From Eledone cirrhosa (lineage: Eukaryota), in NCBI GenBank assembly GCA_964016885.1, contig OZ024755.1, positions 5,580,001-5,644,000 of the forward strand: a stretch of DNA of 64,000 bases, written 5' to 3'. Made by a program: the position numbers and the translations under genes. Below, piece by piece: positions 10,303 through 61,135 of this stretch. Every line of letters begins with the position of its first letter. The first letter of the stretch is position 1. The notes below the pieces were generated by a model, which saw nothing but the letters and a program-made list of their open reading frames with translations, searched no databases and was not told where the DNA came from.

Positions 10303-10438
10303 TATTCACAAGAATCAAAGCTATGTTCAATTATGTGTACAAACATTGAAAAATGCTCTGAAGACTCCAAGCCTAGGTTTGGATGAAACAATTGTAAATG
10401 AATAAATGCTTTGAACATAGCTTTGATTCTTGTGAATT
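10303..10438 (+). ncRNA. Minimal type I hammerhead ribozyme motif between 28-bp inverted repeats
   Basis: CTGAAGA(10358)-c tccaagcc ta ggtttgga t-GAAAC-AATT-GTA(10396). Palindromic stem III (ACAATTGT), weak stem I, AATAAA downstream. IR arms at 10303-10330/10411-10438. Confidence 0.6.
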
Positions 10439-10546
10439 CTCTCTCTCTCTCTCTCTCTCTCTCTCTCTCTATATATATATACACACACACACAAGTTTAT
10501 CCATATATATATATATATATATATACACAAGTTTATCCATATATAT

Positions 10547-10945
10547 AAGTTTATCCCGGGTTCAATCAGAGGTAACCACAGTAAGTAAAGTACTCAATAC
10601 AAAGCAGAGTATAGATATTTAATATAGAAAAGCTTCTACAGGACTAAAACTGTTTCATTCGGGAGAAATCACCAGGAAGCTGACTGTCCAAGTAATATGG
10701 TGGCATTTATATCTTTTCTGGTGGTAAGAGAGGGTGGGGATTGAGATGGATGGAGGTCACTGGTTGATGGGTTTAAAGAAAAGGGAATTCTTTAAAAACT
10801 ATATTTAGAATAACAAAGGCAGAAAAAATTCTATAGACAGGTTCACTCTGGGGTGCCACTCCTGATTTTTAAGAAAAATCATCAGCTTCCTGATGATTTC
10901 TCCTGAATGAAATAGTTCTAGTCATGTAGAAGCTTTTCTATATAA
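10547..10945. mobile_element. Penelope-like family 1 pLTR with two opposed hammerheads
   Basis: Minus-strand HHR at ~10631-10681 (CTGGTGA variant). Plus-strand HHR agcttc-CTGATGA(10890)-tttctcctgaat-GAAA-tagttctagtcatg-TA-gaagct. Flanked by (TA)n. Confidence 0.75.
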
Positions 10946-10949
10946 TATA

Positions 10950-11140
10950 TGTGTGTGGGAAGGGTTGGATTTAGACCTGGGGGCCTCCCCCCTCATACAC
11001 ATACAAATTGGAATACACAGAAAACCCCACCATTTTACATATCAAAGTTATACATACAGGTATTAAATAAAAAAATTCTAACCATCCTAAAACTAAAAAG
11101 CCAAGCTGAGGACGTAAATAAATTGCTACAGACGGCGCTG
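10950..11140. repeat. Unclassified dispersed repeat (second copy ~42395-42590)
   Basis: Shared ggatttagacct...tatacatacaggtattaaataaaaaaattctaaccatcctaaaactaaaaagc...aaataaattgctacag. Confidence 0.7.
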
Positions 11141-11672
11141 GTATTTTGACATTCTATCTACGAAATATGCAGTAACCATCCAAAGACTATATACATACAC
11201 ACATGTAATTACAGAGAGAGAGAGAGAGAGATGGAGGGAAGAATGTGTGGATGTGGGAGACAGAGAGAATGAGATAGGAAATATATTTCCGTTTAAGATT
11301 TAATAACATCAACAATATTAAACATATTTTTGAAAACAGAAATGTGAGATTGAAATGGAGAGACAAATCCAAATAATCTTACAATGATACGAATTTGGCA
11401 AACGAAAAGCTGGCACACTCACATACTTTTCTTGTTTATATTTTTGTTGCCACCAAAGACAGGCGATAAGTTGACAGGGTTGTAAGAATGTCGGAATAGA
11501 ATGCTTCTCGATATTCCTCCGACTCACTGAGTTCAAATCCCACCAAGGTCAACCTTGCTTTCATCCTTTCAAGATCGATGAATAAGTGACCAGTTCGATA
11601 CTCAGGGCTGGTTCTACCTCAATATCTTCCTCACACACACAGGCACACATATACACAGTCATACACAGACAC

Positions 11673-12150
11673 TCATGCTTCCCGAGATTCACCAACACTA
11701 CACCTAATATTCCCCCTCCATACACACACATCATCATCATCATCATTTCATTTTACGTCCACTTTTCCCTGCTTGCAAGGGTGGGACGGGAACTGATTCT
11801 GGCTTGATTTCTACAGCTGGATGCCCTTCCTAACACCAACCTCATTTACAGTGTGTGCTGGGTGCTTTTTTGCCGTGGCACCTCCATGACCACTTTGCAG
11901 TGGAATGATAGGGACCCCAGTCCCTATCATCTCATTTCTACAGTGAGTAAACTGGAGCAATGTGAAATAAGTGCCTTGCTCAAGGAAACAATACATCACC
12001 CAGTCTGTATACACACACATGTATATCATGACTCATACACTATTCACTGCCCTGACATTTGTACATTATTCTATGTACTATACAGGCACCTTTGATGAGT
12101 TGTAGTGCACCTGAGCACTGAACACAATAATTTCATTATTATTATTATTA
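11673..12150 (+). mobile_element. CR1-like LINE 3' UTR interrupted by a SINE
   Basis: 11673-11730 and 12009-12150 match 22232-22402; (ATT)n tail. Confidence 0.8.
11731..12008 (-). mobile_element. 5'-truncated SINE family B with RTE tail and 12-bp TSD
   Basis: Near-identical to 5348-5615. TSD atacacacacat at 11720-11731 and 12009-12020. Confidence 0.85.
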
Positions 12151-12809
12151 TACACAAGCATGCAGCATTGTTTACAGAACAGTGTTCTTATTAACTCAAC
12201 CAATGTGTGGTAGATTGTCAGAATCATTAGAGCGTTCAAGAAAATATTTTGCAGTAGTTTTATGTTCTAAGTTAACTTTGTTTTCCATCATTTTGGCGTC
12301 GATAAAACAAAGCCCCACTTCAGTGTTGAGGTTGTTAGGTTCATGCTTAAATCAGAAACCATTATTAGTTGACCTTATCTCAACAGACAAATGAAAAAGA
12401 CATTCCAGACATGACCCCCCTTTGTCATTTCTTTTTCTGTCATTGTGTTTCTAGAACTCAATTACATTATACGTACTTCCGTTAGTTTTTTTTTTTTAAA
12501 GACGGAAGACTGAGATTTGACAGATATTTGGCAGCTAAATCAAGCAAACACAGTGACCTCCTGTTTGTTCATTGAGCTGTTTTATATCGACGATTGGATA
12601 TCAGGAATTGTCAAATATTCAAACCGGAAGGAAATTACTGATTCTCTCAGAGATTTACGAATATTTGCTATTTGACAAATAATGTCTGTTTTTATTTTTT
12701 ATTTTTTGGGATGGTGGGGGTGGTGGAGGGATTTCTAACCAGATGTAGTTTGGGTTTCGAAAATCAAACCCATTATATTTTGAAAAATTAAAAAGTCAGA
12801 ACCTTTTAA

Positions 12810-58351: not shown

Positions 58352-58595
58352 TTCTTTCTTCTTCTTTGCTCACTTATTCCTGGGAGGTTCGTGGGAGCAG
58401 AGTCCTCAAACACTCCTTCTAGCAGGTCCTGTCAGAAGAAACTGTCTCCAACTGATCCGGATGGATTTCCAAGCAAGACCAGCCAAACTCATGAATGTTA
58501 TCCAAATCTCTTTCTCGTGGTATACCCCTGGGTCTCCTACCGTTTGGTTTTGCCCATAAAATCTGTCCAGCGAACAGAATTTCTCTGAACATTCA
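58352..58595 (-). pseudogene. RTE LINE 3' end with (AAG)n tail
   Basis: Minus strand reads QILWAKPNGRRPRGIPRERDLDNIHEFGWSCLEIHPDQLETVSSDRTC*KECLRTLLPR. Confidence 0.8.
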
Positions 58596-59552
58596 ATACA
58601 TTAATAATCTATGCCTGGTAGTTTGGTTAATAAGCATTGTAGAAGTCTTTACGAAAAGCAAAATATACTCTTAAAAGGTCTATCTTACGACATGCTCCTC
58701 AAACCTTTCATTGTCTACATTGTAATAATAGAAACAGTTGTGTATTATTTACCTAACTGTAACTTTGTTAAGAAACATTGAAGGTCCAGAACGTGTTAGA
58801 AATGTCCAAGAGTTCGTAAAAATATGTTTCATTGCAAAGCCAGAATATTTTCTGTTACTGTAAGACACTCATATTAAAACTAGATTTGTGCCAAAGTTTC
58901 TCTCTTGAAGTCATTAAGAACTTTTACACGTATAAGATATCTACCATTACTAAAACCATTGTTTAACAATTTTGATTCATAGCCAGCAGAGATTAGAAAC
59001 ATTCTTAGACATTTCAGCGGAGTTTATCCGACTAACACCTGTGACATTTGCCTTCTTTATTCTGGTGCCATTTCCATTTCTAAGGAATCAGGATTGATGA
59101 CACACATTTAACATTTCAGCAAATGTGAACTAAAATATCTTATAATGTTTTGAAGAGGTTAAGGTAAAAAGTATCTGCTCAACATTGCACGATTTCCTAA
59201 GTAAAACCTACTTCTAGTCTATAAATACGCTGTTTATATATTTTTTTAATCGTTCGCTAAGCGTTCTGTTATTTATGTATATTTATGCTCACATTTTGTT
59301 CAATACACATATATATATTCCTACACTATATATATATATGTGTGTGTATATTCTGTGTAGATGTTTAATGCCCTGTGTTATCTATATATATACATACGAG
59401 TACATGTAAACTGATATGCACATATGTGTATAACTACAAACGTCTTTATACATACACACATACATATTATATATATATATATATATTATATATATATATA
59501 TATATATCTCAATGATATTAATAAATGGAAACTATATTTATAAAACCATATT

Positions 59553-59613
59553 TATTTTATTATATATATTTCAAAGGTACCAACATTTTGGTACGCTCTC
59601 ATCAGATAAAATA
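59553..59613 (-). ncRNA. Intact type I hammerhead ribozyme (related to 17574-17636)
   Basis: Minus strand: tattttat-CTGATGA-gagcgtaccaaaatgttggtaccttt-GAAA-tatatata^-ataaaata. 8-bp stem I, palindromic stem III. Confidence 0.7.
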
Positions 59614-59719
59614 CAAAATATTTTAATAAATATTGACATAACCAGGAAACCAGACCTTGTCGATTCAGGTTCATAAATAAATTTGTTGAATAACCAACAA
59701 ATTTAATATCTCTTTGCTC

Positions 59720-60990
59720 ATATATATATACACACACACACACACACACACACATATATATATATATATATGCATGTGTATATACACACACACACACACA
59801 TATATATATATATATATATATATATATATATATGTATATATATATATATATGTGTGTATATATATATATATATACACACACAGACACACATATATATATA
59901 TATATATGTATGTGTATATATATATACATATATATATATATACACATACATATACACACATATATATATATACACATACATATACACACATATATATATA
60001 TACACATACATATACACACACACATATATATATATATATATATATATATATACACATACATATATATATACATATATATATATATACACATACATATACA
60101 CATATACACACACATATATATATATATACACACACATATATATATATATACATACATACATATAATATATATATATGTATGTAAGTGCACATGTATTTTA
60201 ATATATATACATATATATATATATATATATATATATATATATATATATATATATATACATATATATATATATATATATATATATATATATAATTGGAAAT
60301 CAGTAAAATCGAATCTCTGGCGGTTTGCAAGTAAATTCGGCCTACTTATATGAAATGATGAGTTATATATACACATACATATATATATATATATATATAT
60401 ATATATATATATATACACACATACATATATATATATATATATATATATATATATATATATATATATATACACATACATATATATATATATATATATACAC
60501 ATACATATATATATATATATATATATATATATATATACACATACATATATATATATATATATATATATATACACATACATATATATATATATATATATAT
60601 ACACATACATATATATATATATATATATATACACATACATATATATATATATATATATATACACATACATATATATATATATATATATATATACACATAC
60701 ATATATATATATATATATATATATATATACACACATACATATATATATATATATATATATATATATACACACATACATATATATATATATACACACATAC
60801 ATATATATATATATACACACATATATATATATATATATACACACATACATATATATATATATATATACACACATACATATATATATATATATATACACAC
60901 ATACATATATATACATATATATATATATATATATATATATATACACATATATATATATATGTATGTCTATATATATATATATATGTATAT
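59720..60990. repeat. Long (TA)n/(CA) compound microsatellite with an ~80-bp unique insert at ~60290-60365
   Basis: Direct inspection. Confidence 0.95.
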
Positions 60991-61089
60991 TAAAATACAT
61001 GTGCACTTCTATAATAACAGTGTTACCTATAAATAAATAATGCCCAACCGCATCTATACTTGTTGTTGTTGTTGTTGTTGTGGTTCACG

Positions 61090-61135
61090 TAGTTAATCTG
61101 ATGAGATATAGTTTTCGAAACGCATGTGAAGTTAG
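61090..61135 (+). ncRNA. Degenerate hammerhead motif
   Basis: CTGATGA(61098)-gatatagttttc-GAAAC-GCAT-GTG. Non-cleavable triplet, poor stem I. Confidence 0.4.

Follow-up and report, generated by a model that had tools for sequence, protein, structure and literature searches.

Type I hammerhead motifs in TA microsatellites of Eledone cirrhosa as probable truncated ends of Penelope-like elements

The stretch of the Eledone cirrhosa genome (2,996 Mb) analysed here, 64,000 nucleotides at positions 5,580,001-5,644,000 of contig OZ024755.1 (C15) and referred to below as the window, has a G+C content of 35%, abounds in TA microsatellites and holds a set of predicted hammerhead ribozymes. We conclude, with a probability of roughly 0.87, that these are type I hammerheads lying in the terminal, pseudo-long-terminal-repeat (pLTR) region of endonuclease-bearing (EN+) Penelope-like elements (PLEs), and that they sit in severely 5'-truncated copies inserted in (TA)n that likely arose by twin priming with a stop near the hammerhead. 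Hammerheads have been paired with PLEs before: they are described in pLTRs, as single copies left by truncated PLEs and as pairs on opposite strands (PMC4209133), and a supplement lists an octopus family of the Hydra clade together with its hammerhead (PMC8557442). The members found here are new, and what stands out is their copy number and what they say about mechanism.

Hammerhead motifs in the window and in a genome sample

Motifs were sought with a type I descriptor made up of the core and three helices, whose strict form requires helix I. In the window it matched three times against a mean of 0.05 (maximum 1) in 40 local dinucleotide shuffles, and six times against 0.125 when helix I was not required. 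A genome sample of 80 evenly spaced 10-kb stretches, picked blind to motifs and totalling 799.6 kb (~0.03% of the genome), gave 57 canonical strict motifs in 23 stretches versus 0-2 after shuffling (relaxed form, 77 versus 1-2), and with core variants included 72 motifs of ~22 families in 30 stretches versus 0-3. Wrong-core controls yielded 0-1 matches in the sample, and a relaxed U3-A8 scan yielded 17 over a high background of 9-10. Pairing is conserved as well. Where helix I was not required, 21 of 41 distinct matches still had at least 4 bp of it, compared with a mean of 2.3 (maximum 8) in 2,000 partner swaps. In helix II of family B, double changes occur at six of seven pairs, giving 44 cells versus 15.9 shuffled, a value reached in none of 500 shuffles; this count used 22 of 25 variants (three of odd length were dropped), and the pattern by which rows were picked fixes parts of helices I and III, not helix II. 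The motif enrichment is real in both the window and the genome sample. An earlier note on this DNA, made from the sequence alone, had described a dispersed hammerhead-ribozyme retroelement system in (TA)n microsatellites.

The earlier note had listed about a dozen hammerhead loci. Among its 13 positions, four carry complete motifs, seven carry damaged or half members of real families, and two, 5168 and 61098, are unverified. Complete three-helix motifs lie at 10890, 17586 and 59605 (minus strand) by descriptor and at 48162 by RNAfold, which gives the last an 8-bp helix I and a long helix II; the descriptor skipped 48162 because of mismatches at the opening of helix II. The hallmarks of type I (C3-A9, G12-A14, an A15.1-U16.1 pair, H17 and an open helix I) are present at all four and at 17858. 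At 10358 one change breaks helix I relative to relatives that are 98-99% identical, at 14334 and 18230 an inversion junction removes the helix I 5' strand, and at 46468 helix I is only 2 bp long. The same is true of the copy at 14460, whose core is a U3-A8 variant and not a decayed core. The core at 45823 reads CTCATGA, in a family present at nine other loci, and 55003 retains only the 3' half of the hammerhead. Two cores taken for degenerate are the U3-A8 compensatory variant, described in PMC4209133. Full family E copies elsewhere in the genome also have a U3-A8 core, and a genome-wide pattern search for a canonical-core version of this family gave no match. The motif at 5168 has the core CGGATGA without helix I, and in its one partial homolog (78%) a canonical core is absent.

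Overlooked at first were 10675, 14326 and 17858 (all minus strand), 18310-18415, 25676-25730, 37979-38024 and 41392-41678. Inverted copies, said to occur in most units, are present at seven of the 13 loci (10358, 10890, 14334, 17586, 18230, 48162 and 55003); AATAAA, said to be frequent, lies no more than 30 nt past the predicted cut in five of the 12 loci checked. The features are as follows, with family assignments as argued in the next section.

10166-10440, plus: family D head-to-head stub; tail arm minus 10166-10330, short arm plus 10327-10440 with core 10358 and helix I broken; Hydra-clade PLE 3' end
10547-10950, no single strand: family A pair; long arm minus 10547-10874 with mutated core 10675, short arm plus 10882-10950 with complete hammerhead 10890; Hydra-clade PLE pLTR
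14196-14401, no single strand: family A palindrome; long arm minus 14196-14329 with core 14326, short arm plus 14333-14401 with core 14334 and helix I 5' strand lost
14417-14568, plus: family G, one short arm on its own flanked by (TA)n, with a U3-A8 core at 14459-14465; from the 3' end of a PLE whose C-terminal GIY-YIG is of Neptune type
17466-17760, plus: family B1; tail arm minus, then plus arm with complete hammerhead 17586; Hydra-clade PLE 3' end
17789-17984, minus: family H pair; short arm minus 17789-17899 with complete hammerhead of U4A core 17858, tail arm plus 17893-17984; Hydra-clade PLE 3' end
18095-18415, no single strand: family A palindrome and fragment; long arm minus 18095-18228, short arm plus 18229-18296 with core 18230, extra minus fragment 18310-18415
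25676-25730, minus: family E short arm; 3' half of hammerhead
41392-41678, no single strand: family A tail 41392-41476 and family E pair; E long arm minus 41502-41633, short arm plus 41633-41678
45800-45940, plus: family C2, a degenerate hammerhead (core CTCATGA, 45823) whose helix II is long; another fragment lies at 37979-38024; no open reading frame (ORF) link
46357-46595, plus: family F, one arm on its own flanked by (TA)n, with a minimal hammerhead core at 46468; from the 3' end of a PLE whose GIY-YIG is of Neptune type
47991-48297, plus: family C; tail arm minus 47991-48150, plus arm with complete hammerhead 48162; older family (85-90% identity); no ORF link
54945-55105, no single strand: family E palindrome made of a short minus arm (54945-54992) and a long plus arm (54991-55105), each keeping only the hammerhead's 3' half; Hydra-clade PLE 3' end
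59510-59665, minus: family B2 single arm; complete hammerhead, core 59605
61098-61129, plus: unverified hammerhead-like singleton without helix I, with G where cleavage would fall and without a homolog in 1.84 Mb of loci
62700-63430, minus: decayed, frameshifted Hydra-type PLE reverse transcriptase (RT) with a YRDDG motif; akin to the mobilising elements and the parent of no hammerhead in the window

Hammerhead identity was unsupported for further candidates at 62015 (minus strand), 61720, 7679 and 39941. Families C and C2 (48162 and 45823) share a stretch, TGAGCTGATCAAT, in the long helix II despite unlike flanks, possibly a tertiary-contact module, and a C-pyrimidine mismatch is kept at the fourth position of helix II in family B.

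It is extremely improbable that AT-rich DNA yields these motifs by chance or that long-read assembly created them as fold-back artefacts; for the families this explanation is refuted, and it would apply at most to the two unverified singletons. Those two loci and the high U3-A8 background are what it has in its favour; against it stand the excess over shuffles, the helix covariation and the arms of head-to-head pairs, which differ from each other by 2-8% and in length. Many head-to-head joints, at 10878-10889, also occur in contigs from public runs (three runs of one sample, of a kind not on record and possibly the assembly's own).

Complete motifs occur at a density of ~1 per 11 kb in the sample, and extrapolation from this 0.03% of the genome gives ~270,000 motifs genome-wide (interval 170,000-390,000, bootstrap over stretches). 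About a third of the canonical count comes from three tandem-array stretches, without which 36 motifs are left in 77 stretches. The earlier figure of one per 5 kb is reached only by including halves and fragments (143 of five families in 799.6 kb), not by complete motifs. Published counts, obtained with other descriptors, are ~2,000 + 1,300 in S. mansoni, 4,000 in coelacanth and 9,000 in Xenopus. The largest printed count we found is 126,247 motifs in the 28-Gb genome of axolotl (PMC7229834), and the interval estimated here for 3.0 Gb lies above it, again with different descriptors. Rfam hammerhead models gave no match at gathering score in the window and six loci, and an E-value search gave only microsatellite-driven matches among the 150 of 223 matches listed. 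Rfam at its gathering score is blind to these motifs. Even so, to call them a major unannotated repeat class is right as to abundance and overstated as to annotation: the O. vulgaris annotation reports 31 recently active PLE families, dropping annotations of <100 bp (PMC13282606), and an octopus Hydra element is listed with its hammerhead elsewhere (PMC8557442). Many stubs are probably unrecorded, because Rfam misses the motifs and the octopus annotation drops elements below 100 bp.

Continuity of the hammerhead families with Penelope-like elements

The decayed RT that the earlier note had placed at 62700-63430 was confirmed by tblastn, in which an intact ORF from the same genome matches 62976-63396 on the minus strand at E 9e-12. 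Pfam gave no match for the decayed frames or for the intact ORF, and the decayed RT is not the pLTR partner of any hammerhead in the window. PLE ORF pieces occur in 18 of the 80 sampled stretches; an RT in the window is therefore no proof by itself, and links were made family by family. A first pass found 12,998 genome candidates related to the decayed RT. Among the 150 that were scored, several are open ORFs of 714-715 aa that combine an RT with a GIY-YIG at the C terminus. In intact elements hammerhead-bearing direct repeats flank the ORF, often together with an inverted copy. At locus L081 two hammerheads lie 4,278 nt apart around a 714-aa ORF that carries the Hydra motifs RWK, DKT, CxCx5C, CxxC and CxH in a motif scan against the definition in PMC8557442. 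As described there, the Hydra clade, including Hydra-1_Obim of Octopus bimaculoides, has the same RWK, DKT, YRDDG and CxCx5C motifs, a C-terminal GIY-YIG with CxxC and CxH, the same (TA)n targets and a canonical hammerhead near the 3' end, and by eye the PLE protein of this genome closely resembles Hydra-1_Obim. Inverted, 5'-truncated copies with a tail at one end, reported for PLEs generally (PMC8557442), are seen here too.

Seven families run into PLE-like ORFs, A, B, D, E and H into those of the Hydra clade and F and G into ones with a Neptune-type nuclease. The tail of family A enters the start of a Hydra ORF in all 20 loci fetched with a junction query, a hammerhead being detected in 15, and two loci of family D are collinear over 1,776 nt at 95% identity from the ORF end to the hammerhead. 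The ORF links of the other families were found at L116, L147 and L068 for E and at L149, L176 and L141 for H (unbiased sample), at L373 and L374 for B, and, behind the different, Neptune-type nuclease, at L371 and L372 for F and L370 and L372 for G. The family ORFs are 31-52% identical to the L081 ORF or its relatives. In F and G the nuclease-like ORF ends show cysteines and histidines of the Neptune kind (CX2-5CxxC upstream, CCHH-type residues), and no RT was recovered; Naiad and Neptune nucleases are hard to tell apart. The proposal that the window units are pLTR remnants is thus borne out by independent copies of A, B, D, E, F and G that continue into PLE-like ORFs. A description of family A as a 480-bp non-autonomous element with a fixed 5' end was rejected, since its tail enters the ORF and its apparent end adjoins (TA)n; family G also extends upstream of its apparent end.

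The hammerheads themselves resemble the published truncated-PLE set in being type I with a short palindromic helix III and a large helix II, in including the U3-A8 variant, in occurring mostly as single copies and in forming opposite-strand pairs 100-700 bp apart. Unlike that set, the sequences here include an abundant family, H, with a U4A core.

The earlier note had also entertained non-autonomous, retrozyme-like elements. It is highly unlikely that the window units are non-LTR retrozymes, that is, cleaved and circularised short RNAs copied in trans by PLE proteins. Animal retrozymes of this kind do share type I hammerheads in short AT-rich repeats of very high copy number (PMC7229834; Li, Clavereau and Pollet 2026 preprint), they are reported as pLTR-derived (bioRxiv 10.64898/2026.07.22.740005), and their tandem arrays have counterparts at other loci of this genome, with one complete hammerhead per unit of ~310 bp at L102, 467 bp at L132, 482-490 bp at L164 and 556 bp at L134; for 29 of the 72 motifs in the sample, a direct-repeat neighbour lies no more than 1.5 kb away. 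However, these arrays occur only elsewhere in the sample and no window locus has a tandem unit. Moreover, seven families are continuous with ORFs, and the 143 fragments of five families in the 799.6-kb sample shun the cleavage site, with only four starts and four ends lying within 6 nt of it. Half of the core is missing in many copies, family E keeping it in 6 of 46. The window units are non-tandem ends of coding elements that are not bounded by cleavage. Besides forming the L164 array, its hammerhead family was observed at L107, where it lies upstream of an ORF, and in inverted pairs at L081 and L121, which links pLTR and array directly in a single genome.

Within the intact Hydra element at L081, the 1.9-kb 3' region (5262-7226) is packed with TA/TG microsatellite and shows 99.6% identity from one arm to the other; near 5658 lies another hammerhead-like copy, which has diverged and has a G where cleavage would occur. 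The copying of PLEs may itself be a way in which microsatellites, and new sites to target, are spread. Unlike families are stacked in shared (TA)n tracts at L053, L055, L070, L245, L253 and L257, a family D pair among such stacked loci sits within the 3' region of a family A-type element, and a 27-28-bp piece of the family A body forms a long tandem minisatellite directly before a family A copy (L058:1000-1500).

Anatomy of the stubs and a proposed twin-priming mechanism

In each family the stubs have two discrete 3' ends (counting from the core, for instance, +70 and +125 for A; +110 and +185 for E; +70 and +160 for H), and (TA)4 adjoins 98 of 141 arm ends, compared with 7% at random. A long arm faces a short one in 150 of 164 head-to-head pairs from five families. 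Among the 98 of these pairs that were incidental, not being search targets, 88 are long+short where 48.5 would be expected (P 2e-17), and none is long+long. Of the 150 long+short pairs, 45 have a short arm that extends beyond the long one on the 5' side by more than 15 nt, 7 have the converse, and 26 show no overlap between the arms. Each family gathers its 5' ends at places of its own: A and H at the helix I 5' edge (about -5 and -3 from the core, respectively), E within helix II, and G at two places, the core itself and a point ~43 nt upstream of it. Single, unpaired copies begin at the same hot spots, several of which adjoin an AG. In the public-run contigs, summed depth, which is no copy number, is 0.3-1.2 million across the family A hammerhead and tail and drops, at the 5' edge of that hammerhead, to 14,000-50,000 immediately upstream of the core.

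Non-overlapping inverted pairs are the pattern left by twin priming in L1, and such pairs cannot come from fold-back copying. The one-long-one-short pairs, the further 5' reach of the short arm and the 5' pile-ups suggest twin priming on one RNA. In such a mechanism the element protein would cut both strands of a TA repeat, and each cut (TA)n end would prime reverse transcription at one of two internal start sites of a single RNA. The long arm would come from the distal site and the short arm from the proximal one, which lies 10-80 nt beyond the predicted cut, and microhomology may then join both cDNAs head-to-head. Synthesis would usually halt near the hammerhead, either at the 5' end of the RNA or at a block formed by a ribonucleoprotein or RNA structure; a joining bias at short quasi-palindromes is another candidate for the 5' pile-up. 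The hammerhead, a predicted ribozyme, would be a passenger in the stubs; its place immediately upstream of the start sites would explain why nearly every insertion is marked by it.

Several of these steps have a precedent in vitro. PAc, from a Poseidon PLE, cuts and extends both strands at AT-rich DNA and has two internal RT start sites that define the tail, and it uses uncleaved RNA, hammerhead cleavage being dispensable (PMC11167929). Head-to-head joints are not addressed in that work, and the inverted copies and one-sided tails of PLEs have been called an open task (PMC8557442). As to the stop, in Penelope of D. virilis the promoter is internal and there is a 5' intron (PMC2377424), the end of which abuts helix I (PMC4209133). 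Among loci matching five reference copies we found no intron-less copy, only one unrelated deletion. A donor-like GTATGT motif 35-45 nt upstream of the core is kept across divergent subfamilies of family B (17560-17570; L176:4700-4793).

A bolder form of this mechanism, to which we give slightly less than an even chance, makes twin priming obligatory: one target strand would always use the distal site and the other the proximal site, both cDNAs would run off at a fixed point at the hammerhead, and octopus-type genomes would in this way have acquired the densest hammerhead load known, several hundred thousand. That fixed point might be the element's transcription start, a splice acceptor or a protein-bound ribozyme fold.

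A number of observations weigh against the interpretation given here. Families C and C2 have no ORF link (in family C, 15 + 3 loci were extended), the link of family A runs through a subfamily 77-85% identical to the window copies, and the clade calls are from motifs and by-eye comparison with a supplement and not from a tree. The lowest-energy fold of most monomers is not the active three-way junction. In vitro the start site of PAc did not differ between strands (PMC11167929), whereas here the arms are almost always of opposite kinds and the stops are family-specific. Finally, in 98 of the 150 long+short pairs the arms end no more than 15 nt apart, which fold-back self-priming explains equally well, and short quasi-palindromes coincide with some hot spots (H and G at -2, A at -13), where a joining preference may shape the ends.

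These last points belong to an alternative that shares the PLE origin and has the palindromes arise by fold-back self-priming of one cDNA, or by later deletion of the centre, with the hot spots being microhomology. Arm-to-arm identity exceeds that between copies at different loci in A (0.92 versus 0.87), E (0.98 versus 0.91) and G (0.94 versus 0.91), as this alternative would have it, and the 98 symmetric pairs could reflect either route. Self-copying, however, cannot make the 45 short arms that hold sequence absent from the long arm or the 26 non-overlapping pairs, the hot spots of E (+50) and G (-43) have no perfect quasi-palindrome in the reference copies, and the unpaired single copies begin at the same spots. 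As a replacement for twin priming we regard fold-back as unlikely; it concerns the joining step only and may act beside twin priming.

Neighbouring repeats and implications

The window also contains decayed long interspersed element (LINE) ORF fragments at 2155-2960 and 21592-21955. One carries a PHD-like finger (Pfam PF00628, E 1e-6), and the other is a LINE end followed by a 61-bp tandem; we take them to be RTE-like and CR1-like, respectively. Four further repeats, at 9693-10011, 21803-22232, 33147-33609 and 57563-57777, comprise minisatellites with units of 28, 61 and 29 bp and a dimer of 107 bp; they look derived from pieces of short interspersed element (SINE) or LINE ends, the short repeat at 57563-57777 presumably being an octopus SINE.

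Our searches of the open-access literature turned up neither a count of hammerheads across a whole cephalopod genome nor a description of twin priming in PLEs, nor the long+short arm rule, the 5' excess of the short arm or the 5' pile-up at the hammerhead. The long+short rule, the non-overlapping pairs and the fixed stops yield sharp predictions for the existing in vitro system, and the young, intact Hydra elements named here are test material for PLE integration. If obligatory twin priming is true, the stubs would be a nucleotide-level fossil record of the tandem and inverted structure of PLEs and of the role of the hammerhead. If even a small share of the motifs cleaves within introns or untranslated regions, host transcripts would be affected.

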